DNA from: a phage
Sequence record: OZ413487.1
Direction: 5' to 3' (one strand)
DNA length: 64,000 nt
In this document: in pieces, positions 19,161 through 63,581 of the stretch
How positions within the stretch are numbered: the stretch's first letter is position 1
How the letters are laid out: each line of letters begins with the position of its first letter
The notes under the pieces: model-generated
Told to the model about the DNA's origin: nothing
What the model saw: the letters and a program-made list of their open reading frames with translations, nothing else
Database searches by the model: none
Position numbers and translations under genes: made by a program

Positions 19161-19395
19161 TTTCTCCTCTTTGTCAAGTGCTGCATGAAAAATTTACAAG
19201 CTTGTATGGTAGCATTTTTGCGGCCCTGTTTACATTCAGTAATGTATGTATAATCCTTGTTGTGTGGGCGTTTAGACGTCTAGACGGTTGGAAGTCCACA
19301 GGTCAATATCTAATCTATCGGCTGCTAACTATATCCCACACAAATAGTAAGAAATATGATTGTTATATGCGTAAACTGTAACTCATGTTATCAAT

Positions 19396-19765
19396 CCCTG
19401 TATGGATCGCCAGTGGTGCGCATAATAGGTATTATGTTAAATTGCCCGTAATGATAACAGTTCTCACAATGATAGGTATTCTCATTCATCCACACAAAAT
19501 AGGTTGCAAATGTTGTGCCACTGTGTGAACGGCCTGGCCTATTAATTTCTCTCACTGCCTCGATATTTGAGAATTGTTATCCCTGTATGGATCGCCAGTG
19601 GTGCGCATAATAGGTATTATGTTAAATTGCCCGTAATGATAACAGTTCTCACAATGATAGGTATTCTCATTCATCCACACAAAATAGGTTGCAAATGTTG
19701 TGCCACTGTGTGAACGGCCTGGCCTATTAATTTCTCTCACTGCCTCGATATTTGAGAATTGTTAT
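19396..19765. repeat. perfect tandem duplication, 2 x 185 bp
   Basis: Unit ccctgtatgg...gagaattgttat at 19396-19580 repeats identically at 19581-19765. Confidence 0.85.
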
Positions 19766-20823
19766 AAGAATGAGAAGTATTCCCATTCCGTCCGCCTGGC
19801 AGCACTCCTGTAGGTCCTGCAAGGACTCTAGCTGAAAGCTAGACCCTTCGGGCCTCCCTGTAGGTCAGGTCAAAATCGTGGTAGAATTGGGCCTGTTCAG
19901 ATATTTCTGGCTGACTCTTCAGGTCTGTGTGGGAAAAGCCAACCTCTCCGGCGGGGCAGGGGGTCATGACGGGAAAATTGCAGGTCAATTAAAAAATTTA
20001 CGTGGTGTATGAAGCGCTCTTCAGGTAAGGCATGTATTATGGGATGAAACCCTCTTCAGGCAATGATATTTGTGGGTGTGATATTTGCTGGAAAGCCAGA
20101 TATGACGGGACTCCCGGCGGGGATGGGGTAGTACAGACAGGGAAAATATGAGAATGTAGTTGGGGAAATTGATCAGACAGGTAGAGTATGGAATATGTTA
20201 CAAGTATGTTAAATATGGAGGTTGAATATCTGTAGGATTTGTGTGTAAAATCAAAGACTTAAGGGGTGTTGTGGTATTTTCTATAAATAATTCAAGTTTA
20301 ATAGGCAATATTTGTCTCTATCCGCTTTGTGTGGTAAACAGATTCAGATTAGATTGGTTTACAAGTGTATACATAATATACAAATTAAAGATACAAGAAA
20401 CCCCCCTCCCCCTTCGGCTACCATTCACCTTTTCCTCTGACTGGTACTTAAACACTTATTCAGACTCTTCAGGTTATCACCCATATATCATATGGCAGTG
20501 ACTGGTGTCCTCCGGCCCCTCTTTCGTCACCCGTCCGCTTCGCCATGCTAATGCCATAGCCAATGGTTCGGTTGTTCACTCTGTTCACTCAGGTGTATCT
20601 CCATACCCCTTCAAACCGAAGAGAACAGAAAACCCGAATTACTCGGTAAAAGAAAAGAGAAGAACTTAATTTTATCAGGATAGGCAAGAATGTCAAGGCA
20701 TGACTGCTCACTAAACAAGCAAACAGTCATGTGTGGAAGGTAAGTGATTGTGGTGGTGGGAAATTTAGTTGAAAGATGTGTTATAGGTGCTCCCAGCACT
20801 TTAGCCGGGTAGCTAATTGTGTG

Positions 20824-21039
20824 TCAGTCCAGTGGTTCATCACCTACTTCACTGAAATCAATGTTCATGGTCTCCTCCCAACCATCAATCTCAGCACCAG
20901 AGTAGAGATCTTTAGGACTTACTCCCAAAGCATCAGCAACAGAGTCCATATTTAACACCTCTGGCAGGTATGATTCATCGAATTCAAGGTAAATCAGGCC
21001 ACGAGTGTTGTCAGCTCCACCAAATATTTCTATCTTCAT
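20824..21039 (-). CDS. hypothetical acidic protein
   Basis: Start trimmed to ATG 21039 after GAGGAG SD (track 21105). Confidence 0.5.
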   Translation of the reverse strand: MKIEIFGGADNTRGLIYLEFDESYLPEVLNMDSVADALGVSPKDLYSGAEIDGWEETMNIDFSEVGDEPLD

Positions 21040-21159
21040 GAAATCTCCTCTGGGAATGAGAGTGTGAACAGGGTTTATACGTTCCAATGCGCTGGAATTA
21101 TGCACGTTTGCCTCTTCAGGCCATGCTTCAGCATGAGGAACCTGTGTGGGCTCGGTGCT

Positions 21160-21372
21160 TCATAGTCTACCACCCCTGAACTCTTCGTGCTCAGGCATAA
21201 TAGAGAACCAGATATCTACGATGTCTTCCCACGTCAGGTCATCAGCCTCAGGATCTACCTGGAGCGAAGATGAAGAATCTTCAGAATCGAAGTTTTCCTC
21301 TTGCACTGGCTCAGTCAAGGGACATATAGTCACTCCTTTGGATGTCTCTTCAGATGCATGTGTGTTTATCAT
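21160..21372 (-). CDS. hypothetical acidic protein
   Basis: 70 aa; start overlaps the stop of an upstream micro-ORF (ATGA). Confidence 0.4.
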   Translation of the reverse strand: MINTHASEETSKGVTICPLTEPVQEENFDSEDSSSSLQVDPEADDLTWEDIVDIWFSIMPEHEEFRGGRL

Positions 21373-21458
21373 GTTCCACCCGTGAGTATTCCGGCAACAG
21401 CTGCTATGGACGTAATGATCATCAGGATCACCACTAAAACTTCGGACAATGTTCTCAT
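21369..21458 (-). CDS. 29-aa hydrophobic peptide
   Basis: Below track cutoff; GGAG SD 9 nt upstream; coupled to 21160..21372. Confidence 0.3.
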   Translation of the reverse strand: MRTLSEVLVVILMIITSIAAVAGILTGGT

Positions 21459-21732
21459 TGTGTACTCCATATTCTACAAACTATGTGTGGATACTATCAC
21501 TGGATCGGTAATGTGTCAACAGAAACGCCGCGAGGGTTTGGTTAAAATCCGAGCGTATGGTGATTTGGGTCAAAACGGACGTGCGTTCTCGCTACGCTCG
21601 AAATATGGAGTTGTTTGTAGGGAGCTCTTAAACGCTCTGTAATGAAATTAACTACCCAAGGTATGCAATCGTGCACCAGACAAAGAAAAGGACGCCACAG
21701 AGCGTCCTAGGTGTCTTAAATTTGATATTTTG

Positions 21733-22032
21733 CTATACCCACGAGGGCTTATCAAGGTTGGAGTAGCTGAAAGGTGTCAAAAGGTGACTGTCAAAATCTC
21801 TCAAACTATCCAAATCTTTTTCCTCGTCCTGACACCATCTGTGCCTACATTTGTTGTTGTAGTGCATGGAATGCATAGCGTTCTGCAACTTAACAGGCAC
21901 AAGTGATTCAGGAGTAGATAGTATTGTTGGGTATGCCAGAACCACCTCAAACAGTGGAAACACATCGAAACTAAAGTCTACCTCTGCAGAGGTTGATGGC
22001 ATATAGGAGTATTTAGCCGCCTTTGTAGACAT
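21733..22032 (-). CDS. hypothetical protein
   Basis: ATG 22032 after GAGGTGG SD (track 22044). Confidence 0.45.
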   Translation of the reverse strand: MSTKAAKYSYMPSTSAEVDFSFDVFPLFEVVLAYPTILSTPESLVPVKLQNAMHSMHYNNKCRHRWCQDEEKDLDSLRDFDSHLLTPFSYSNLDKPSWV

Positions 22033-54067: not shown

Positions 54068-55351
54068 TCATTCCAGAACCTCCCAAGTGTCTGGGTCAAC
54101 ATTTCGGACGCAGATACCGACAGGGAATTGGTAGTTGTTGTCTTCTGTCCTTGATTGATATTTGAAGGTGACAAACTTGCCGATCATTTCCTGCATCCTG
54201 TCATAGCTACGCTCCTCGTGCGTGCCTTTCATCTTCATTTTAACAATAACACCTTCCTTGTCAACACAGATAAGAACACCTTCATCATTCTTATCTTTCT
54301 CAACGTCAATAACTTTCACCTCTGCGTCGTTGAACTTTTTCCATTTCAATGCTTCAGATGTTCGCTGACCGTACTCGTATTTACCGCAGAAATTACGCAT
54401 GATAGTACCTTCATATCCTTCGGACATGAATATACCAACAGATTCTTCGCAATGATCAACTGTGTACGCAAGCTCTGCGTCAACAACCTTGATATGGTCA
54501 AGCATCAGAGTGGTAACGGTATCCTCTGCATCCATAAGATCCTTGCAGCGTCCAGACTCTGTTTCTGGATCCCACCACACCTTGTCGCTAGGAATATCAA
54601 AAATGTGATACTCCAGATCGTAGCTACAGTACCCACCGTAACGCAAATCATCACGAACAGGCTCAACATCGACAGGAATATCTACCTTGTTGAAGTTTTT
54701 GTATGTTGATAAGCCTGCCTTAATTGCTGCATGACGGCGTTTTTTATCTGCCTCATAGTCTTTATCGATCTCGGCCTGAATTTCTTCCTGTGTGCGCCAC
54801 CGTTTAGCAAGAGACACTATTTTCTGCAGAGGAAGACCATGAATATAGAGCTCTCCGTCGAGCTGTTTAATCCCGGTGGTTAGGTGGAAAGAGCGAAGTT
54901 GCTCCAGAAGCTTTCCTTGAATAGGGTAGGACTTATTACCACGGGAAATAAATTTAGGCTCACCATTTTGGAAAACAACAAGCAGACGAAGGCCATCTAA
55001 CTTACGCAAGATCCAGCAAGGTAATTTAAGTGCCTTGCCACGCTTCAGGTAGTCATGCACCAGCATGGGTAAAAGATCAACACCCTGCTCGCAATCTTCC
55101 ATGTTTTCAACATACCCCAGACGGACTTGTTTTTCCCACTTGCTGATAGCCTCAAGCTCGGCCTGTTGCTCAGCTGTAGTCTCGTTGGCACGACCTACGT
55201 TCTTAGGTGTGCATACCGTCTCTTTGTACTGCAGTTTACCATCAAGCTTGCCAAACTCTACGATAACCTTATCACCATCCGTGAATACTTTCCACTGTTG
55301 GTAGCTGCCATCTTTATTCAGTGCGTACAGTGTTGTTTTGATCTGATGCAT
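54068..55351 (-). CDS. DNA ligase (nucleotidyltransferase, KxDG motif)
   Basis: 427 aa; PML...KLDGLR motif I, EGYEGTIMRN and KWKKF downstream motifs; hairpin terminator after stop. Confidence 0.7.
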   Translation of the reverse strand: MHQIKTTLYALNKDGSYQQWKVFTDGDKVIVEFGKLDGKLQYKETVCTPKNVGRANETTAEQQAELEAISKWEKQVRLGYVENMEDCEQGVDLLPMLVHDYLKRGKALKLPCWILRKLDGLRLLVVFQNGEPKFISRGNKSYPIQGKLLEQLRSFHLTTGIKQLDGELYIHGLPLQKIVSLAKRWRTQEEIQAEIDKDYEADKKRRHAAIKAGLSTYKNFNKVDIPVDVEPVRDDLRYGGYCSYDLEYHIFDIPSDKVWWDPETESGRCKDLMDAEDTVTTLMLDHIKVVDAELAYTVDHCEESVGIFMSEGYEGTIMRNFCGKYEYGQRTSEALKWKKFNDAEVKVIDVEKDKNDEGVLICVDKEGVIVKMKMKGTHEERSYDRMQEMIGKFVTFKYQSRTEDNNYQFPVGICVRNVDPDTWEVLE

Positions 55352-55936: not shown

Positions 55937-55978
55937 ACTTTCCACAACAAGTAAAGCCGGGTAATCCCGGCTATGTTG

Positions 55979-56692
55979 TTAAATATACTCTGTTACATCC
56001 TTGAAGCTCGAAGGCTTCATGATCTTACCTTTACTGTCAAGGAATATGATAACTTTATTACCGTTGTAGAATTCTTCCTTAGCAACAAAACCTTCATATC
56101 GACCATCAAAGCGTCGTTCAAGATCTTTAATCTCCAACTCGATGAGTTGTTCAGCAGGCATATCTGCACTGGCACCGTGTGAATACCGTAGATGGTTGAC
56201 CCGTGCAAACTTGCTGTCATTCGATTTGAGAACCTTACGCATCATCCCGCACACATCGCCGCGAAGCTGGAACAGCAAAGCTGTTGACAACTCTGCTAAG
56301 CGGTAAGCGGATGCTCTTTGCTTAGAGGTGTTTTTCGCAGCGATCAGTGTATCATAGAACTCACCGATCTTGAACTTAAGACCTCGTGGATTATCAAACA
56401 GGTTTGACCACTTTTCGTGATTGTCATTAACAAGATAAGCGGCATAACTTGTGACAACGTGAAGATCGCAGGCCTCTTTTAGCAGGTGATCTCCACCATC
56501 CCCTTTCTCCAGCTCTTCCAAAACTTCATTGAACTCTTCCTCAATGAAGCTAAGCTGTAATTCGAACGGTATGTATGATTTTTTCACTTTAGCTGCCACA
56601 CGGTTCCAGTTTTCCACCCAGTTGGCAGACCAAAGGTAGTTTTCAGGTTGGGACAGTTTTTCCAGGTTGTCAATTAATTTGGTATTCAGCAT
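55979..56692 (-). CDS. hypothetical protein (possible MazG-like NTP pyrophosphohydrolase)
   Basis: 237 aa; EEEFNEVLEELEKGD...ACDLHVV resembles MazG EExxE...D motifs (weak); AAAGGAGA SD. Confidence 0.35.
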   Translation of the reverse strand: MLNTKLIDNLEKLSQPENYLWSANWVENWNRVAAKVKKSYIPFELQLSFIEEEFNEVLEELEKGDGGDHLLKEACDLHVVTSYAAYLVNDNHEKWSNLFDNPRGLKFKIGEFYDTLIAAKNTSKQRASAYRLAELSTALLFQLRGDVCGMMRKVLKSNDSKFARVNHLRYSHGASADMPAEQLIELEIKDLERRFDGRYEGFVAKEEFYNGNKVIIFLDSKGKIMKPSSFKDVTEYI

Positions 56693-56705
56693 TAAAGGTC
56701 TCCTT

Positions 56706-57467
56706 TTAAAGTTCCATAAAGTTTTCTACGGTCTCAATGAATGTTTTATCAGAGAAGGCATCAACCGCACCGTTAAACCAAACTGGGATGCCGCGATCCT
56801 CATACTGGTAAATATCACTACGTGAAATGCCATTCTCCTCTAGATGCTGTGAGTCGTATTTATTAACGATCAGTAGTTTGGTTCCCTTATTGCAGGCAGG
56901 GAATAGCTCCCAGTTAAAATTGATAACTGTGTTGGAACACCCTACAAGGATAACCATATCATTGCTTGTAAGAGAAGTCAACAGGTCATACATGTCTGTA
57001 TACTTCGGAGCTACTTCTCCGAAGAACACCACATTAGGTTTAACCCAGGTATACTTTCCTGCATCTACCTCAGAGTATCCAATGTCCTTAATGACGTCAC
57101 TTCCTTCATCGTCCTCATAGACTATTTCTGGCAAATACCCGTGAACATGTAAAATATCTTCATGTTTTACACCAGCACGCTCCAGCAAATCATCTACATT
57201 GGTGGTAAGGTTGATCACACGACCAGACCAGCGGGAATACCACTCAGCGATCCGAAGATGTGCAAGGTTAGGCTCAACACCGCCTAGAGCTACACGACGT
57301 GCATTGTAAAAGTCATGCACCTTGTAGTAGTTCTTGGCAAAGGTGTGGATGTTGCACACCTCATCGATGCTGAAATTCTCCCACATTGCAGTGCTACCAG
57401 ATCGGAAAGTGGGAATACCAGATTCAGCGCTCAAACCAGCACCGGAGATAATAATCAGTCGTCGCAT
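56706..57467 (-). CDS. Sir2-family NAD-dependent protein
   Basis: 253 aa; ISGAGLSAESGIPTFRS matches the Sir2/CobB GAGIS..SGIPxFR signature; HG catalytic pair present; no CxxC zinc ribbon seen. Confidence 0.75.
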   Translation of the reverse strand: MRRLIIISGAGLSAESGIPTFRSGSTAMWENFSIDEVCNIHTFAKNYYKVHDFYNARRVALGGVEPNLAHLRIAEWYSRWSGRVINLTTNVDDLLERAGVKHEDILHVHGYLPEIVYEDDEGSDVIKDIGYSEVDAGKYTWVKPNVVFFGEVAPKYTDMYDLLTSLTSNDMVILVGCSNTVINFNWELFPACNKGTKLLIVNKYDSQHLEENGISRSDIYQYEDRGIPVWFNGAVDAFSDKTFIETVENFMEL

Positions 57468-57475
57468 AAGTGTCC

Positions 57476-57826
57476 TCAGTAGATGTTTTGTTTAATCTCT
57501 ATTCCAAACTTTTTAAACGAGTCAGCTGCAAGCATGAATTTACGAGCCGCTGATGGGTTAGAAGTATGCACGAAAATCTTCACGTTGTCAACTACAGGGG
57601 GCTTACCAAATACAAATTTTTCCTCCAACATAGATAGGCAATCGTACCCTTCGAACACCTCTCCAAGGTCGTTGTCCATGTGCCACTCAGAAACGCGTCT
57701 GTAGAGCTTTCCCCTATCGTTAATAAAATCTATAAACTCGGAGGAATTCTTTAGCCAAATAGCGTCTGGGAGCCCATAATTTGACGGATCTCTCAAGTCA
57801 TCCAGCCACACAATCAACTTCTTCAT
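57476..57826 (-). CDS. hypothetical protein
   Basis: 116 aa; weak SD. Confidence 0.45.
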   Translation of the reverse strand: MKKLIVWLDDLRDPSNYGLPDAIWLKNSSEFIDFINDRGKLYRRVSEWHMDNDLGEVFEGYDCLSMLEEKFVFGKPPVVDNVKIFVHTSNPSAARKFMLAADSFKKFGIEIKQNIY

Positions 57827-58740
57827 TGCATATAGTTCTCGTTGTGGAAATAGTAATCAAGTATCTCACGGCGTTCCTGCTCCAGGAGGCAGTTCCACAC
57901 ATCTTCTGTGTAATTGTTACGAATGAAGTTTACCATGCCGTAAAACTCTTCGTCAACACGTTTAAAGATATCATCATCCCAAATCCTCCAAGCTTTACCC
58001 CTCATTACGGCCTTCCGTGCCAGGTAGTATGGAGACTTGATCTTCAGCTGCAGGTCATAAGGGTAGTAAGGCTTACGGATCATATACCCTTCGCCCCTTG
58101 TTTCTGCGGCTAATTCTTTTGCATAGCTGAACGGGATTTCACGCACAGTGTGAGGACGTTTTGCACCAAGGTATTTGGCAATCCCATCTAAAGCTGCTTC
58201 TGGTAGCATTATTCCAGAATCATTATATCTGCAACCTATCAAATATGCGCCATGGTCTTCTTGAACAATATGCGGATCTGAAGGGTGACAAATTTCAAAC
58301 ATGAATGTCATGTTTTCATTGCCCATAACCTTCTTGATAAGATCTAAATTACCACATTGCTCTTGGATGGTTTCCTTTGCAAGGTTACAATATGGAGAAT
58401 CAAGAGACCCGGTTGTTGAGAACAATAGGTCACCTTTATGAGATGATACCACACCAAGGAATCCGTTCTTTTTCTCTACCGCAGTCACAAGCTTATTGTC
58501 AGGCAGGTTGGTGGAGTTTTCTCCCAAGTTAAACACTTTTGTGAAGGGCCATGCCACAACATTTCCTTCATTACCTACAACAATGCCTCGACACTCCAGT
58601 AAACGAGGGGACAAATGCCATAAATTGTTGTAAAATACTTTTCTAGCATATTTATAGATCTTTAACCCAAGATCCGGGTAATATCTACTGGTTACAAGAC
58701 CTTTGTCAACTAGGTCGTCTGCATTAAAATACTTCATCAT
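57823..58740 (-). CDS. rnlA: RNA ligase (T4 RnlA/Rnl1-like)
   Basis: ECRGIVV, KVFNLGEN, AVEKKNGFLGVVS, LFSTTGSLDS align with T4 RnlA ECRGIMF, KFFNLNEN, ILTKEDGSLVSTY, LFKSKGSIKS; ATG 58740 after GAGGAA SD. Confidence 0.75.
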   Translation of the reverse strand: MMKYFNADDLVDKGLVTSRYYPDLGLKIYKYARKVFYNNLWHLSPRLLECRGIVVGNEGNVVAWPFTKVFNLGENSTNLPDNKLVTAVEKKNGFLGVVSSHKGDLLFSTTGSLDSPYCNLAKETIQEQCGNLDLIKKVMGNENMTFMFEICHPSDPHIVQEDHGAYLIGCRYNDSGIMLPEAALDGIAKYLGAKRPHTVREIPFSYAKELAAETRGEGYMIRKPYYPYDLQLKIKSPYYLARKAVMRGKAWRIWDDDIFKRVDEEFYGMVNFIRNNYTEDVWNCLLEQERREILDYYFHNENYMQ

Positions 58741-58801
58741 ACGTTCCTCATTTGTCATTTTGTCAGTCTATCCTGCCACACAAATAACCTAGTGTCAACA
58801 C

Positions 58802-58830
58802 TTGAAATTAACAAAACAGTTAGGTATACT
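58802..58830 (+). promoter_or_regulatory. sigma70-like promoter (divergent from rnlA)
   Basis: TTGAAA-N17-TATACT; track ORF start 58802 is this -35 box. Confidence 0.5.
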
Positions 58831-58858
58831 ATCGTTGAAATTAAAACGGAGTATTACT

Positions 58859-59269
58859 ATGTCTAAAATGCTATATATCGTGCGTGGTCTACCAGGGTCT
58901 GGCAAATCAACACTGGCAAATGCGCTATCTTTAGAAGGTCTGTATCCACATTTTGAGAACGACATGTTCTGGTACGACGATGATGGAAATTACAACTGGG
59001 ATGCAAGTAAAGTAACACTTGCAGCAAAATGGTGCAAAGATAACGTAGAAGATATGATGCGTATGGGATACGACCGTATCGTGGTAAGTAATACGTTTAC
59101 AAAAGAAAAATATGTGCAAGAATATATTGACATGGCGATCAGTCATGGGTATAGTTATACCGTGATCGTGGTTGAAAACCGCCATGGTAATAAAAGCATT
59201 CATGATGTTCCAGACAGGGTTGTGGATCGTATGGAACGCCAGCTTAAAAACTGCATTAAACTTAAATGA
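58859..59269 (+). CDS. polynucleotide 5'-kinase-like P-loop kinase
   Basis: 136 aa; GLPGSGKST Walker A, VVSNTFT, HDVPDRVVDRM parallel the T4 Pnk kinase domain (GCPGSGKST, ISDTNL, VPIDVLRSM). Confidence 0.6.
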   Translation: MSKMLYIVRGLPGSGKSTLANALSLEGLYPHFENDMFWYDDDGNYNWDASKVTLAAKWCKDNVEDMMRMGYDRIVVSNTFTKEKYVQEYIDMAISHGYSYTVIVVENRHGNKSIHDVPDRVVDRMERQLKNCIKLK

Positions 59270-59276
59270 GGAATGT

Positions 59277-59831
59277 ATGAAATACTTTGTAACAAGCGAC
59301 ACACACTTTCTCCACCAGCGGGTCATGGAGTTCGATTCATGTCAAAAACACAGATCTCAGTATGATCACAATCTTGACAGTATGAATGCGGGAATCATCG
59401 CCGAGTGGAACTCTGTTGTGTCACCTGCAGACACTGTGTTCCACTTGGGAGATATTGCGTGCACTAATGATAAGAATATCAACAACTTACTTCCAGATAT
59501 TCTAAATATGTTGAACGGACATATTATTCTTGTTCGTGGCAACCATGACACAAGGACGACTGTCAGAATTATGAAAGAGTTCGGTCATGAGGTTGTAGAT
59601 TATTACGAGCTTCGCCACAACAAGAATTTGATCTGTATGAGCCATTACCAATTTGCAAAGTGGAACAGAAAGCCTCACGGATCAGTCCAACTGTTCGGTC
59701 ATGCTCACGGAACCACACAACAGTTGTTTGGCAGGCAGCTTGATGTCGGTTGGGATGTGTGGGGGAGACTCTTACCATTAGAAGAGGCATACCGTATTGC
59801 AATGAGTTTTGCTATTGACAGCGGGGAGTAA
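59277..59831 (+). CDS. calcineurin-like metallophosphoesterase
   Basis: ATG 59277 after GAGGAA SD; FHLGDI, RGNHD, GHAHG metal-ligand motifs. Confidence 0.7.
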   Translation: MKYFVTSDTHFLHQRVMEFDSCQKHRSQYDHNLDSMNAGIIAEWNSVVSPADTVFHLGDIACTNDKNINNLLPDILNMLNGHIILVRGNHDTRTTVRIMKEFGHEVVDYYELRHNKNLICMSHYQFAKWNRKPHGSVQLFGHAHGTTQQLFGRQLDVGWDVWGRLLPLEEAYRIAMSFAIDSGE

Positions 59832-59878: not shown

Positions 59879-60229
59879 ATGAAAGATGGGGATAAGCTGC
59901 TATATCTTAAAGTCCCCCTTGAAATACTGTCTATGTCAAAAGTTTTGAATGACACAACTGGAGAGGTTGTTGTTCTTGACTTGTATGACAAGATCGTATA
60001 CTGCTACCTGCACAACTGGTATAAGCTTGGAGGAAATTCACGCTTCACACCCAGCACAAGGAAAATTGCAGCAGATGTTGGGATAAAGAAAACAAAAGCA
60101 GCAGCGTGCGTTAAAACTTTAGAGTGTGCAGGGGTGGTTGAAACATCCACACAAGGGAGAGGTAAAAGATGCACATTTTCCAAAGTTTTGCCACCAGAAG
60201 AAGTTATTCGGATGTCAACAACTGGTTAG
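59879..60229 (+). CDS. hypothetical protein (possible DNA-binding)
   Basis: 116 aa; AAGGAGA..GGAGA SD; immediately upstream of palindromic site array. Confidence 0.5.
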   Translation: MKDGDKLLYLKVPLEILSMSKVLNDTTGEVVVLDLYDKIVYCYLHNWYKLGGNSRFTPSTRKIAADVGIKKTKAAACVKTLECAGVVETSTQGRGKRCTFSKVLPPEEVIRMSTTG

Positions 60230-62680: not shown

Positions 62681-62709
62681 TTGACAAACTTTGCTTAACA
62701 GTGTAATAT
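62681..62709 (+). promoter_or_regulatory. sigma70-like promoter upstream of tRNA cluster
   Basis: TTGACA-N17-TAATAT about 60 nt before first tRNA. Confidence 0.55.
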
Positions 62710-62767: not shown

Positions 62768-62842
62768 GCCCTGTTAGCTTAGTGGATAAAGCAGCGGCCT
62801 TCTAAGCCGTTGACACTGGTTCGAGTCCAGTACGGGGTGCCA
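62768..62842 (+). tRNA. tRNA-Arg (anticodon TCT)
   Basis: Cloverleaf folded by hand: 7-bp acceptor (two G-U), loop CTTCTAA, T-loop TTCGAGT, encoded CCA. Confidence 0.7.
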
Positions 62843-62846
62843 AATT

Positions 62847-62933
62847 GGGGAGTTATCCCGTAGAGGTAGCGGTGTAGACTGTAAATCTATTGTCATTGCG
62901 ACTCGGGTGGTTCGACTCCACCACTCCCCACCA
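62847..62933 (+). tRNA. tRNA-Tyr (anticodon GTA), type II
   Basis: Acceptor ggggagt/actcccc, anticodon loop CTGTAAA, long variable arm, T-loop TTCGACT, CCA. Confidence 0.7.
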
Positions 62934-63047
62934 AATTTATATTTTTAGATGCATAAATAATACAGATAATGGCATTGATATTTATCGTCGTTTATACTAG
63001 TCACTAACTGCTCGAAAATCAGTGTCATTATCAGTATAATTTATAAA

Positions 63048-63138
63048 GGAGGGTAGGGAGCAATGGTGCTCAAGCGGTCTTGAAAACCGTCCCGTTGAGG
63101 ATGACTCGATGATGGTTCGATTCCATTACTCTCCGCCA
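63048..63138 (+). tRNA. tRNA-Ser (anticodon TGA), type II
   Basis: Acceptor ggagggt/actctcc, anticodon loop CTTGAAA, long variable arm, T-loop TTCGATT, CCA. Confidence 0.7.
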
Positions 63139-63236
63139 CATTGTTGACCTTGTAATTAAGCGAAAGCCGGAAGCAGAACCGGATTATCAAATGTTACAGT
63201 CGTCATCGCCGACTAGCAACATGGTCAACATGCTGA

Positions 63237-63335
63237 GCTAGGTAAGCCCTTTGGCAAGGGCGAGGATTTTTAATCCTGAAAATAGACGAGGTAGTCGTTG
63301 AATACATAGGTGGTTCGATTCCATCACCTAGCACC
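63237..63335 (+). tRNA. atypical tRNA-like element (possible tRNA-Lys TTT with long insertion, or pseudo-tRNA)
   Basis: Perfect 7-bp acceptor gctaggt/acctagc, good D-arm and T-arm (TTCGATT), but weak anticodon stem and about 30-nt insert before T-arm; no complete CCA. Confidence 0.3.
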
Positions 63336-63340
63336 TTTTT

Positions 63341-63416
63341 GCTGATGTAGCACAATCGGTAGTGCAATTGATTTGTAATCAATAGGTTGTAGGTTCAAAT
63401 CCTGCCATCAGCACCA
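63341..63416 (+). tRNA. tRNA-Thr (anticodon TGT)
   Basis: Acceptor gctgatg/catcagc, anticodon stem attga/tcaat, loop TTTGTAA, T-loop TTCAAAT, CCA. Confidence 0.8.
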
Positions 63417-63417
63417 A

Positions 63418-63492
63418 GGCCCTGTAGCTGGAAGGTTCAAGCAAGCGACTCATAATCGCCAGACGGTGGTTCAATTCCACCCAGGGCCACCA
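63418..63492 (+). tRNA. tRNA-Met (anticodon CAT; Met vs Ile2 not distinguishable)
   Basis: Acceptor ggccctg/cagggcc, loop CTCATAA, T-loop TTCAATT, CCA. Confidence 0.75.
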
Positions 63493-63503
63493 AATAGTAA
63501 ATA

Positions 63504-63581
63504 CTCCGCGTAGCTCAGCTTGGTAGAGCGCCTGATTTGGGATCAGGAGGTCGAGTGTTCGAATCACTTCGTGGAGACCAC
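63504..63581 (+). tRNA. tRNA-Pro (anticodon TGG)
   Basis: Acceptor ctccgcg/cgtggag, D-stem gctc/gagc, anticodon stem cctga/tcagg, loop TTTGGGA, T-loop TTCGAAT, CCA. Confidence 0.75.

Follow-up and report, generated by a model that had tools for sequence, protein, structure and literature searches.

Predicted RNA end-healing and sealing module in a six-gene locus of an rV5-like coliphage

Does a phage locus in which an RNA ligase is transcribed divergently from a kinase and a phosphoesterase encode an RNA repair system, and what would such a system repair? We addressed this question in a 64,000-nucleotide stretch of phage DNA (record OZ413487.1; here called the window), which comes from an rV5-like coliphage and is 98-99% identical to rV5-like genomes. 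An initial annotation had proposed that three genes form a split heal-and-seal module. We found all three open reading frames where it had placed them, each of the three belongs to its expected family, and the heal-and-seal logic holds.

Layout of the locus

As had been described, the ligase and kinase genes are divergent; they are separated by an intergenic region of 118 bp (58741..58858), whose sequence we read directly. A sigma-70-like site lies upstream of the kinase at 58802-58830 on the plus strand (TTGAAA-17-TATACT; 10/12 consensus matches), and no comparable minus-strand site was found within the spacer. The kinase gene (58859..59269, plus strand; 136 aa) has a GGAG sequence 8 nt upstream of its start, and the phosphoesterase gene (59277..59831, plus strand; 184 aa) starts 7 nt past the kinase stop. 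For the ligase (57823..58740, minus strand; 305 aa), a longer ORF begins at 58758; a GAGGA Shine-Dalgarno sequence stands 4 nt ahead of the ATG at 58740, and the family alignments also start at this ATG.

The module extends beyond three genes to six: behind the ligase, in its orientation and closely spaced, come three more. The start codon of the gene for cREC, a "cyclic-phosphate processing receiver" domain protein (57476..57826, minus strand; 116 aa), shares bases with the stop codon of the ligase (an ATGA visible in the sequence itself), and translation of cREC is coupled to that of the ligase. A sirtuin of the Sir2 family (56706..57467, minus strand; 253 aa) is encoded 8 nt downstream of cREC, followed by a candidate MazG-like nucleotide pyrophosphohydrolase (55979..56692, minus strand; 237 aa), whose gene is the final one of this minus-strand unit. 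Apart from the ligase/cREC overlap and the ligase/kinase spacer, the intergenic gaps in the module are 7-13 nt. Just beyond the MazG-like gene is a putative terminator hairpin (55955..55972; GC-rich, 7 bp, 6 of them G-C), which is terminator-like on both strands, as a consensus match only, and which likely ends the ligase-cREC-Sir2-MazG transcription unit. An ATP-dependent DNA ligase gene (54068-55351, minus strand) lies 0.6 kb past this operon.

The module had also been placed about 3 kb upstream of seven tRNA genes, and the cluster (62768..63580, plus strand; Arg-UCU, Tyr-GUA, Ser-UGA, Lys-UUU, Thr-UGU, Met/Ile-CAU and Pro-UGG, by ARAGORN and Rfam) does begin 2.9 kb past the phosphoesterase. 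It has a promoter-like site of its own at 62681-62709, and its tRNA-Lys-UUU bears a long extra arm, not an intron. Nearby tRNA genes are seen again in distant relatives, though not as a rule: of 54 distant loci, 14 have a tRNA or tmRNA no more than 6 kb from the ligase, and one locus has 34 tRNAs around it. We regard the seven tRNAs as context only, possibly as substrates or as replacements for cleaved host tRNAs.

Family assignments of the encoded proteins

The ligase matched PF09511 (RNA_lig_T4_1; E=1e-14) and phrog_562 (E=3e-66), and T4 Rnl1 was the sole match of its family profile in the PDB (E=3e-13). Residues R51, K68/F70, K90-x-N-G93 and E149 align to T4 R54, K75/F77, K99..G102 and E159, while E217-G218 and K233/K235 align to T4 E227-G228 and K240/K242. 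The Rnl1 nucleotidyltransferase motifs I, III, IV and V, whose absence had been named beforehand as a reason to reject the assignment, thus align to T4 Rnl1, and their catalytic residues are invariant across the family. An AF2 model of the protein (pLDDT 91.5) gave Trl1-LIG, Rnl3 and T4 Rnl1 as top folds (E~1e-12). The description "RnlA-like" is apt for motifs and fold, but it does not extend further: the protein scored 38.6 bits against the RnlA equivalog model, far below the cut-off of 242 bits, and its C-terminal region past motif V is about half the size of that of T4 (~65 aa versus ~130 aa), with no alignment between the two. In addition, all members of this family have a Thr where T4 Rnl1 has K119. 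We conclude that the ligase is a member of a distinct subfamily of ~300 aa with a short helical C-terminal region. Because this region is short and cannot be aligned to T4, tRNA specificity is not transferable from T4 Rnl1.

The kinase matched AAA_33 (E=3e-10), phrog_2071 (E=2e-58) and phrog_505, "polynucleotide kinase" (E=3e-10). Its family profile ranks polynucleotide kinases, rather than adenylate or dNMP kinases, at the top, in agreement with the identity first assigned to it: the top PDB matches were Pnkp1 (4XRP; 3.5e-9), T4 Pnk (1LY1/1LTQ, full length) and CthPnk (4GP7). Full-length matches comprised Pnkp1, T4 Pnk, the Trl1 kinase, PSTK and CthPnk, whereas adenylate kinases matched at the P-loop only. 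An invariant D35 is aligned with the catalytic D35 of T4 Pnk; T4 Pnk R38 and R126 are not conserved, with W38 and K111 in their place here and a deletion at this site in part of the family. Judged by sequence, polynucleotide kinases and tRNA-end kinases are the nearest relatives of this enzyme.

The phosphoesterase matched Metallophos_2 (E=1e-6) and phrog_547 (E=1e-51). Its binuclear metal site is intact and the metal ligands are invariant (invariant residues D8, H10, G58-D59, G88-N89-H90, H123 and G141-H142-x-H144), which bears out its identity as a calcineurin-type metallophosphoesterase. The comparison with bacterial Pnkp stands at the superfamily level and fails at the level of the clade: the nearest solved structure is Aquifex aq_1665 (1XM7; E=2e-10 with the single sequence, 2e-22 with the profile), and the profile retrieved no Pnkp or lambda-phosphatase chain from the PDB at E<=1. 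These searches place the protein in an aq_1665-like clade, one without a characterised member, and not with Pnkp and lambda phosphatase. It also weakly matches the ligase-associated PdeM family (E=3e-4, far below the cut-off). Work on CthPnkp and lambda phosphatase has shown that a binuclear metallophosphoesterase can be both a 2',3'-cyclic phosphodiesterase and a phosphomonoesterase (PMC2190708); our protein is a candidate for a putative 2',3'-cyclic phosphodiesterase and 3'-phosphatase.

Among the accessory proteins, cREC matched PF20274 above the Pfam cut-off (E=1e-14). All of 38 homologues share D51, D53, H87 and K96, with D9/D10 close to invariant as well, and the best PDB folds for its AF2 model (pLDDT 90.9) are receiver domains (E~2e-3, TM~0.6). 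The sirtuin matched PF02146 (E=6e-27) and phrog_2162 (E=3e-109); its sequence is without zinc-ribbon cysteines, and its matches to NCBIfam deacylase models are all under their cut-offs. The MazG-like protein matched phrog_671 (E=2e-21), had no Pfam or PDB match, and was named a MazG-superfamily protein by Iyer et al. 2022 (PMC9503650).

Conserved linkage of ligase, kinase and phosphoesterase

We surveyed 85 phage loci containing a relative of the ligase, counting partners within 6 kb, and de-replicated them at 70% ligase identity to 41 lineages. A kinase was present in 69/85 loci and a phosphoesterase in 68/85, and both occurred in 31 of the 41 lineages. The adjacency of the three genes is beyond chance, and kinase and phosphoesterase are the constant partners across the wider ligase family (~80% of loci). 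All six gene orders were seen (MPE-RNL-KIN, KIN-RNL-MPE, KIN-MPE-RNL, RNL-MPE-KIN, MPE-KIN-RNL and RNL-KIN-MPE); a divergent kinase/phosphoesterase arm was found only in the single rV5-type locus among the 85 examined. The Sir2 and MazG-like genes are near the ligase in 10 and 12 of these loci, respectively, and Sir2, cREC and MazG-like are lineage-specific additions (10-12/85). Other recurrent neighbours in the phage loci encode HD_4, a DSP-type phosphatase with a "Swiss-army-knife" match and an Rv2179c-like 3'-5' exoribonuclease.

The kinase and the RNA ligase are particularly close, with a median gap of ~0 nt and a single-ORF fusion in 11 phage loci. In bacteria they are fused in 63/80 loci, 48 of which have a phosphoesterase of the same family ~1 kb downstream, and in Leptolyngbya a single protein of 712 aa combines a kinase, a Metallophos and an RNA_lig_T4_1 domain. 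The bacterial loci adjoin Ro60 (TROVE + vWA) in 30/80 cases and a Thg1-like tRNA-end repair enzyme in 6/80, and none of the 80 has an ATP-dependent DNA ligase nearby. Such a DNA ligase lies within 6 kb in 26-35/85 phage loci, the present window included; given these nearby genes, a shared nucleic-acid-metabolism block could lie behind part of the synteny.

Proposed function, alternatives and known systems

Anti-phage host RNases are often metal-independent (the PrrC and RloC anticodon nucleases, colicin-type tRNases, HEPN toxins and Cas13), and such enzymes leave 2',3'-cyclic phosphate ends together with 5'-OH ends. In the mechanism we propose, the metallophosphoesterase would open and remove the cyclic or 3' phosphate to yield a 3'-OH, the Pnk-like kinase would phosphorylate the 5'-OH, and the Rnl1-like ligase would self-adenylate at Lys90, move AMP onto the 5'-phosphate and seal the break. 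The substrates would likely be tRNAs or other structured RNAs of both host and phage. A nucleic-acid heal-and-seal function is very likely, and we hold with good confidence that its target is RNA rather than DNA. Taken as a whole, the locus is likely a phage-encoded RNA end-healing and sealing module, an assignment drawn from the enzyme families, catalytic motifs, folds, operon anatomy, conserved linkage and fusions, and its use is probably counter-defence RNA repair; we infer the catalytic activities, the RNA substrate and the counter-defence role alike. As to the narrower proposal of the initial annotation, tRNA repair specifically against anticodon nucleases, we consider the chances even, with both the tRNA substrate and the nuclease target presumed. 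An NAD+-linked branch has been proposed in print in which cREC linearises the cyclic phosphate, the sirtuin strips the 2'-phosphate in the manner of KptA/Tpt1 and other hydrolases clear by-products (PMC9503650); its operation in that form seems doubtful.

We weighed RNA repair against four other explanations. A housekeeping role, in which phage tRNAs (including the long-arm tRNA-Lys) or other transcripts are matured or circularised and no host damage is repaired, is improbable. It would fit the position of the kinase and phosphoesterase, 2.9 kb upstream of the tRNA cluster on the same strand with no predicted terminator between, the tRNA-bearing distant loci, and the fact that the bacterial homologues adjoin RNA quality-control genes (Ro60, Thg1-like) and not defence genes. 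However, most ligase loci are without a nearby tRNA, the cluster has its own promoter-like site, and the odd tRNA-Lys has an extra arm and no intron. Moreover, on E. coli K-12 the relative Bas54 tolerates transposon insertions in each of its six orthologues, so these genes are not required for any essential step of maturation; in the Bas54 comparisons examined, depletion of the module genes was not significant, and this tolerance on K-12 is as expected for conditionally useful genes. We likewise see little prospect that the phosphoesterase, cREC, Sir2 and MazG-like proteins mainly degrade nucleotide- or NAD-derived immune signals (cyclic oligonucleotides, cADPR variants), the ligase and kinase being mere neighbours in an anti-defence island. 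The phosphoesterase accompanies ligase and kinase in bacterial chromosomes without Sir2 or cREC, a metallophosphoesterase domain lies between kinase and ligase in the fused cyanobacterial protein, and cREC is coupled to the ligase. These observations stand against the definition of cREC amid NAD/ADPr-processing enzymes, with frequent Nudix fusions, the NAD-salvage genes within 6 kb of the ligase (NAMPT in 29/85 loci, PRPP-synthetase in 25/85), and the mention of phage calcineurin-like phosphodiesterases as possible signal degraders.

Every fusion that we saw joins the kinase to an RNA ligase, never to a DNA ligase, which argues against healing of DNA ends (5'-OH, 3'-phosphate) by kinase and phosphoesterase for the nearby ATP-dependent DNA ligase, in the style of eukaryotic PNKP. 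The near-zero kinase/RNA ligase gap and the bacterial neighbours, Ro60 and not DNA ligase, point the same way and leave this explanation quite improbable, although the DNA ligase gene is close to the operon here and recurs in phage loci, the phosphoesterase has its weak PdeM match, and T4 Pnk is active on DNA as well. Attachment of tail fibres, as by T4 gp63, with unrelated neighbours, is scarcely credible as the main role of the ligase. PHROG and several GenBank names do read "RNA ligase and tail fiber protein attachment catalyst", and the N-terminal part of T4 rnlA is intolerant of insertions; yet the name is inherited from T4, insertion levels in the Bas54 ligase orthologue are similar to those of its neighbours, the catalytic residues are invariant, and the conserved partners are RNA-end enzymes.

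The initial annotation implied novelty, but the RNA repair module is not new, because its genes already carry names in GenBank records, and Iyer, Burroughs, Anantharaman & Aravind (2022, Viruses 14:1977, section 3.7.3; PMC9503650) have published both the neighbourhood, taking phage V5 as the prototype, and the same reading of it. Our locus does not differ in kind from their "type 2" sirtuin-cREC-tRNA ligase neighbourhood (prototypes Escherichia phage V5 and Proteus phage Mydo), with which it shares phage group and genes: sirtuin, T4-like tRNA ligase, cREC, nucleotide kinase, MazG-superfamily pyrophosphatase and calcineurin-like phosphoesterase (PMC9503650). In those sirtuin-centred neighbourhoods, the phosphoesterase was called "occasional" (PMC9503650).

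With T4 Pnkp (PseT) and Rnl1 (RnlA/gp63), which act against PrrC, the locus shares the heal-and-seal logic, the Rnl1 motifs and fold, and the Pnk P-loop and catalytic Asp. As had been pointed out, the kinase stands alone, without the HAD phosphatase of T4, and a metallophosphoesterase, possibly together with cREC, takes its place as the candidate for 3'-end healing. The ligase also differs from T4 Rnl1 in lacking a full C-terminal domain and in its Thr for K119, the repair genes are adjacent in this phage, and an essential tail-fibre role is not evident in Bas54. The triad of kinase, binuclear metallophosphoesterase and ligase resembles Clostridium thermocellum Pnkp/Hen1 and Capnocytophaga Pnkp1-Rnl-Hen1; among PDB entries the kinase profile matches Pnkp1 best, and in the Leptolyngbya relative of the phage ligase a single polypeptide carries the three domains in this order. 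Unlike bacterial Pnkp, the phage has three separate proteins, an aq_1665-like phosphoesterase and an Rnl1-like ligase, and the near-identical segment of a genome that matches the window carries no annotated Hen1 methyltransferase.

Fungal and plant Trl1 (ligase, kinase and 2H cyclic phosphodiesterase) and Tpt1, which then removes the 2'-phosphate in an NAD-dependent step, offer a further parallel: the Trl1-LIG fold match equals that of T4 Rnl1, the kinase search has the Mucorales Trl1 kinase among its best matches, and the operon's NAD-using Sir2 and predicted cyclic phosphodiesterase cREC parallel Tpt1 and the CPD domain. The folds of the latter pairs are unrelated, however (receiver-like versus 2H cyclic phosphodiesterase, sirtuin versus KptA/Tpt1), and the ligase sequence profile reaches T4 Rnl1 only. 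Ro60 was not found in the phage ligase loci, and the ligase is ATP-dependent and Rnl1-like, unlike the RtcB of the rsr-Y RNA-rtcBA cassettes. The likeness to such Ro60/Rsr RNA repair cassettes lies in Neisseria, Alysiella and Cardiobacterium, where a kinase-fused ligase homologue, followed by a phosphoesterase of the same family, adjoins Ro60.

Organization of the locus and its known relatives

The initial annotation had proposed a heal-and-seal module spanning 57823-59831. The three open reading frames (ORFs) on which it rested are present at the positions and on the strands assigned to them: an Rnl1-like ligase (57823-58740, minus strand), a Pnk-like kinase (58859-59269, plus strand) and a metallophosphoesterase (59277-59831, plus strand). 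We place the ligase start at the ATG at 58740, which follows a GAGGA box by 4 nt and is where the homologues begin; the longest ORF runs from 58758. The kinase start is preceded by GGAG 8 nt before it, and the 118-bp spacer between the divergent ligase and kinase genes contains a sigma-70-like site (58802-58830) that faces the kinase. The proposed extent was too narrow, however, as it missed three further genes. A tight minus-strand unit begins with the ligase, whose TGA stop overlaps (as ATGA) the start codon of a gene for a 116-aa 'cyclic-phosphate processing receiver' domain protein, cREC (57476-57826, minus strand; PF20274, E=1e-14). A sirtuin gene follows after 8 nt (56706-57467, minus strand; PF02146, E=6e-27) and, after another 13 nt, a gene for a 237-aa MazG-like protein (55979-56692, minus strand; phrog_671 'nucleotide pyrophosphohydrolase', E=2e-21). 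A GC-rich hairpin (55955-55972) probably marks the end of this unit, and the next gene encodes an ATP-dependent DNA ligase (54068-55351). All six module genes thus lie within 55979-59831.

The module is already known. More than 100 rV5-like coliphage genomes (Vequintavirus), such as A51.2, JohannBauhin and rV5_ev146, match the 4 kb around it at 97.7-99.3% identity, and their GenBank records name its genes 'RNA ligase', 'polynucleotide kinase' or 'AAA family ATPase', 'phosphoesterase', and 'Sir2-like' or 'sirtuin'. The neighborhood is also in print for the rV5 group: the window has the sirtuin, T4-like ligase, cREC, nucleotide kinase, MazG-like protein and phosphoesterase of the type 2 neighborhood of Iyer et al. 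2022, which is defined for a medium-sized proteobacterial phage, with or without the calcineurin-like phosphoesterase (PMC9503650). The initial annotation recognized in outline a real and coherent module, but one that is wider than it supposed, only loosely Pnkp-like and previously described for this phage group. As a discovery the locus adds little, and its interest rests on the predicted biochemistry. Eighteen GenBank records named 'Campylobacter phage' (MG0656xx) match rV5-like coliphages at about 99% identity over the locus and the tRNA-Lys gene described below; they are probably mislabelled, or were isolated on a contaminating host.

The module had also been placed beside a tRNA cluster. 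Seven tRNA genes are indeed found at 62768-63580, but such closeness is not a general trait of ligase loci: tRNA or tmRNA genes occur near the ligase in just 14 of 54 distant loci, a raw count that marks a recurring rather than a defining feature. A search of the 60.2-62.7 kb spacer against Rfam gave no match. At 63237-63333 (plus strand) we found a tRNA-Lys(UUU) whose D stem has 6 bp and whose variable region forms a hairpin of about 26 nt. ARAGORN reports it, wrongly, as a 99-nt tRNA with a 4-base anticodon; Infernal gives it 35.5 bits, and its cloverleaf is the minimum-energy fold (z=-3.7). Infernal and folding together rule out an intron that would need the ligase for its removal: the extra arm is long, and the 7-nt anticodon loop is intact. 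About 120 rV5-like phages share the gene at 95% conservation or more, and their records list it as tRNA-Lys, as tRNA-OTHER or not at all. Because tRNA-Lys(UUU) is the target of PrrC and PARIS, this long-arm form may act as a decoy, or as a replacement that resists the nuclease. The AriB/PARIS paper makes no statement on rV5 or on the repairability of the ends.

Family assignment of the three core enzymes

To characterize the ligase we used a profile built from 27 homologues of about 300 aa, which come from Pseudomonas, Vibrio and uncultured phages and are 41-50% identical. Residues K90-K-N-G93, E149, E217-G218 and K233-I-K235 are invariant among these 27 family members. Against the PDB, the profile matched T4 Rnl1 alone (E=3e-13), and this alignment bears out the presence of Rnl1 nucleotidyltransferase motifs I, III, IV and V: invariant residues R51, K68, F70, K90, G93, E149, E217, G218, K233 and K235 correspond to T4 Rnl1 R54, K75, F77, K99, G102, E159, E227, G228, K240 and K242. 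Of the Rnl1-specific essential residues R54, K75, F77 and K119, the last has an invariant threonine (T110) at its position in this family. PF09511 likewise scores the ligase at 55.3 bits (cut-off, 28.3 bits). Equivalence to T4 RnlA, by contrast, did not hold. The NCBIfam RnlA equivalog TIGR02308 reaches 38.6 bits against a cut-off of 242.25, and a single-sequence phmmer search of the PDB did not find T4 Rnl1, for which the family profile was needed; the ligase is therefore not an RnlA orthologue. The all-helical C-terminal domain of T4 Rnl1, about 120 aa, confers tRNA specificity. This T4-type domain is absent: about 65 residues follow motif V in the ligase versus about 130 in T4 Rnl1, the profile alignment to T4 ends at motif V, and the model has a short helical bundle at residues 237-300. 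With the AF2 model (pLDDT 91.5), the top 20 Foldseek matches were all RNA ligases (E 1e-12 to 1e-8, TM about 0.6), the best being fungal Trl1 ligase domains, archaeal Rnl3 and T4 Rnl1 (all E~1e-12). As modelled, the protein passed as an RNA-ligase adenylyltransferase fold, a level at which Rnl1-like and Trl1-like chemistry are indistinguishable.

The kinase contains the P-loop G10-L-P-G-S-G-K16-S-T, and its invariant D35 aligns with the general base D35 of T4 Pnk. A single-sequence PDB search returned nothing useful. Using a profile of 20 diverse homologues, built from trimmed sequences because fusion proteins had contaminated the first HMM, we found R9, G15, K16, D35, Y45, Y89, H115 and V117 to be invariant. 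The top matches of this profile were polynucleotide kinases, as the initial annotation had anticipated: Capnocytophaga Pnkp1 (3.5e-9) and T4 Pnk (1.8e-8, covering query residues 2-130 of 135), with further matches to the Mucorales Trl1 kinase, L-seryl-tRNA(Sec) kinase (PSTK), C. thermocellum Pnk and mammalian PNKP. The data do not support an identity as a dNMP or adenylate kinase, since adenylate kinases match only at residues of about 3-40, in the region of the P-loop (E>=0.004); the exception, AK9, is a multi-domain protein whose total is summed from several P-loop-only matches. Shikimate and gluconate kinases also match at the P-loop only. Residues R38 and R126 of T4 Pnk are not conserved, being W38 and K111 here, and R107 of the 'ENRHGN' motif aligns to T4 R122 and is missing in a sub-clade with a 2-residue deletion. 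By its sequence, the kinase is closest to the polynucleotide 5'-kinase clade, with predicted activity on 5'-OH ends of RNA or DNA; its fusion to the RNA ligase within one ORF, in 11 phage and 63 bacterial loci, supports this prediction indirectly.

For the phosphoesterase, a calcineurin-type binuclear metallophosphoesterase identity was upheld: the five metal-ligand motifs (D8-T-H10, G58-D59, G88-N89-H90-D, H123 and G141-H142-A-H144) are invariant in 16 diverse homologues, and the protein scores above the Pfam cut-offs for Metallophos_2 (29.0 bits versus 27) and Metallophos (27.9 versus 21.5). An identity as a Ser/Thr protein phosphatase of the PPP type was not supported, as GDxHG, GDxVDRG and GNHE are absent and SDTHF, HLGDIA (no DRG) and GNHD stand in their place. 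The comparison with bacterial Pnkp holds as an analogy at the level of the superfamily but not of the clade. The best relatives are phosphodiesterase-type enzymes: the closest PDB entry to the family profile is Aquifex aq_1665 (1XM7; E=2e-22), followed by GpdQ and other phosphodiesterases, and no Pnkp or lambda-phosphatase chain was matched at E<=1. In addition, CthPnkp is one polypeptide with a Hen1 partner, whereas in the window separate ORFs, on two strands, encode the three enzymes; the annotation of the matching 64 kb of the near-identical phage JohannBauhin includes no Hen1. A literature search found no function for the 1XM7/aq_1665 clade, and the module could supply the first function for metallophosphoesterases of this type.

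Linkage of the core genes in phages and bacteria

We surveyed 85 phage loci with ligase relatives (80 from IMG/VR, four found by exact-protein look-up, and JohannBauhin, itself of the rV5 type), searching their ORFs with profiles seeded from the window proteins. Within 6 kb of the ligase, the kinase was present in 69 of the 85 loci and the phosphoesterase in 68. When ligases were clustered at 70% identity, 34 of 41 lineages had the kinase, 35 the phosphoesterase and 31 both. cREC (12/85), Sir2 (10/85) and MazG-like (12/85) genes were found in smaller numbers of loci. These data add to the published description that the kinase, ligase and phosphoesterase are a conserved core. All orders of the three core genes occur. 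The rV5-type locus alone is divergent, and the others are co-directional except for one contig with two inverted copies; relatives of about 146 kb carry, in one direction and in this order, the genes for the phosphoesterase, ligase, cREC, kinase, Sir2, DNA ligase and MazG-like protein. Kinase and ligase form a single ORF of about 421-432 aa in 11 phage loci (kinase at residues 5-135, ligase at 147-425).

Other genes recur in these 85 neighborhoods. They encode end-processing enzymes (HD_4 in 25 loci, an Rv2179c-like 3'-5' exoribonuclease in 16, and in 15 a DSP-type cysteine phosphatase that also matches the 'Swiss-army-knife' model), NAD-salvage enzymes (NAMPT in 29, PRPP synthetase in 25) and an ATP-dependent DNA ligase (26-35). 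Among six phage contigs with ligase relatives (L042, L044, L045, L053, L058 and L062), three have a tmRNA a few kb from a kinase-ligase fusion, two have a CUA-anticodon tRNA that would read amber codons, and in one 34 tRNA genes surround the ligase.

A scan of bacteria, with one genome per species, yielded 80 loci. The kinase-ligase fusion was found in 63 of them, with a length of about 492 aa, and a phosphoesterase of the same family lies about 1 kb downstream in 48 (Neisseria, Moraxella, Cardiobacterium, Kingella and Eikenella). A Ro60 orthologue (TROVE and Ro60 vWA) adjoins in 30 loci, a Thg1-like enzyme does so in 6, and none of the 80 has a DNA ligase near the RNA ligase. In Leptolyngbya sp. 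PCC 7375 (L141, 3726-5864), one 712-aa protein joins AAA_33 kinase, Metallophos and RNA_lig_T4_1 domains in that order, by its domain content a Pnkp-like architecture around an Rnl1-like ligase family. In Neisseria flavescens (L095, 952-7802) and 29 other loci, Ro60 accompanies a kinase::Rnl1-like fusion and an aq_1665-type metallophosphoesterase, sometimes with a Thg1-like enzyme upstream; this Neisseriaceae/Cardiobacteriaceae cassette looks like an RtcB-independent, Ro-linked RNA repair system. Our survey further contributes a tie between the core and RNA repair, through the fusion proteins and the Ro60-linked homologues of bacteria; no other evidence here argues as strongly that the three activities work jointly on RNA.

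Predicted function and conditional role

From the families, motifs, folds and linkage of these proteins, we infer a set of activities, a substrate and a role in counter-defense. The phosphoesterase would remove a 2',3'-cyclic or 3' phosphate, the kinase would phosphorylate the 5'-OH and the ligase would then seal the break. We consider it very likely that the module heals and seals nucleic acids, and likely, with slightly less assurance, that it acts on RNA rather than DNA; whether it serves specifically to repair tRNAs against anticodon nucleases, as initially proposed, we regard as an even wager. If the function is as inferred, rV5-like phages would repair tRNAs and other RNAs that host abortive-infection RNases have cut. 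Since they are both common and candidates for therapy and biocontrol, RNA repair would then shape which E. coli strains they kill.

Several other explanations were weighed against RNA repair in counter-defense. Given the DNA ligase gene close to the module, its enzymes might heal DNA ends for that ligase; we down-weighted this possibility because only the RNA ligase figures in the fusions and in the bacterial contexts. Another rival is a chaperone role for tail fibres. In the HIDEN-SEQ preprint, which mapped transposon insertions in the V5-like phage Bas54, the six module orthologues (bas54_0206-0211) took a mean of 88-406 insertions per TA site, compared with 0 for essential genes, and showed no significant change in the comparisons presented (adjusted p 0.89 for the ligase) (10.1101/2025.11.20.689424, supplementary tables). 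The module genes are thus dispensable on K-12, which argues against an essential, T4-like tail-fibre role and is as expected for conditional counter-defense genes. Two further rivals are that the module processes the phage's own RNA, and that it clears nucleotide or NAD-derived signals.

In rV5-like phages, a putative branch of cREC, sirtuin and MazG-like protein is added to the core. cREC scores 55.1 bits with PF20274 (cut-off, 27 bits), with D51 and D53 invariant and D9 and D10 present in at least 90% of homologues. A model from 38 homologues (pLDDT 90.9) has response-regulator receiver domains as its top PDB folds (E~2e-3, TM~0.6); sequence searches of the PDB found no relative of cREC or of the MazG-like protein. 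cRec is a receiver-like domain that is never linked to histidine kinases, shows operonic linkage with RNA ligases and has, as its predicted activity, the processing of 2',3'-cyclic or ADP-ribose cyclic phosphates (Iyer et al. 2021, PMC7824862); this activity is described as a prediction for an experimentally uncharacterised domain by Iyer et al. 2022 (PMC9503650), who also proposed that the sirtuin strips 2'-phosphates as KptA does. We observed that the sirtuin (56706-57467, minus strand) retains both the GAGxS...GIPxFR motif for NAD binding and the catalytic histidine of HG. The segment from HG to the FGE motif is free of cysteines, and the usual zinc ribbon is therefore missing; all NCBIfam deacylase models score it far under their cut-offs.

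An NAD-consuming branch was put forward on contextual grounds by Iyer et al. 2022 (PMC9503650). In such a scheme, cREC would leave a 2'-phosphate by opening the 2',3'-cyclic phosphate, the Rnl1-like ligase would seal the break, the zinc-less sirtuin would transfer the junction 2'-phosphate to NAD+ as a functional analogue of Tpt1/KptA, and the MazG-like enzyme and metallophosphoesterase would clear ADP-ribose and nucleotide by-products. That rV5-like phages have rebuilt the ancestral three-enzyme core into this yeast-style, NAD+-consuming pathway from unrelated folds seems to us improbable. The locus offers a compact, genetically tractable setting for two predictions, namely that cREC is a cyclic phosphodiesterase with a receiver domain and that a sirtuin can act on RNA 2'-phosphates.

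Directly after the phosphoesterase lies a gene for a 116-aa HTH protein (59879-60229, plus strand; DUF6945/HTH_36), which PHROG names 'replication initiation protein'. Its orthologue bas54_0212 has ~10-fold fewer transposon insertions than its neighbors, and the HTH protein, unlike the repair genes, may be important for growth. Elsewhere in the window, an ORF-poor stretch (~19390-21900) lies between convergent transcription units and carries 185 nt duplicated perfectly in tandem (19394-19578 and 19579-19763); Rfam gave no match in this 19-22 kb region. The stretch corresponds by position to a ~2-kb intergenic region of Bas54 without transposon insertions (10.1101/2025.11.20.689424), which suggests an essential non-coding element.
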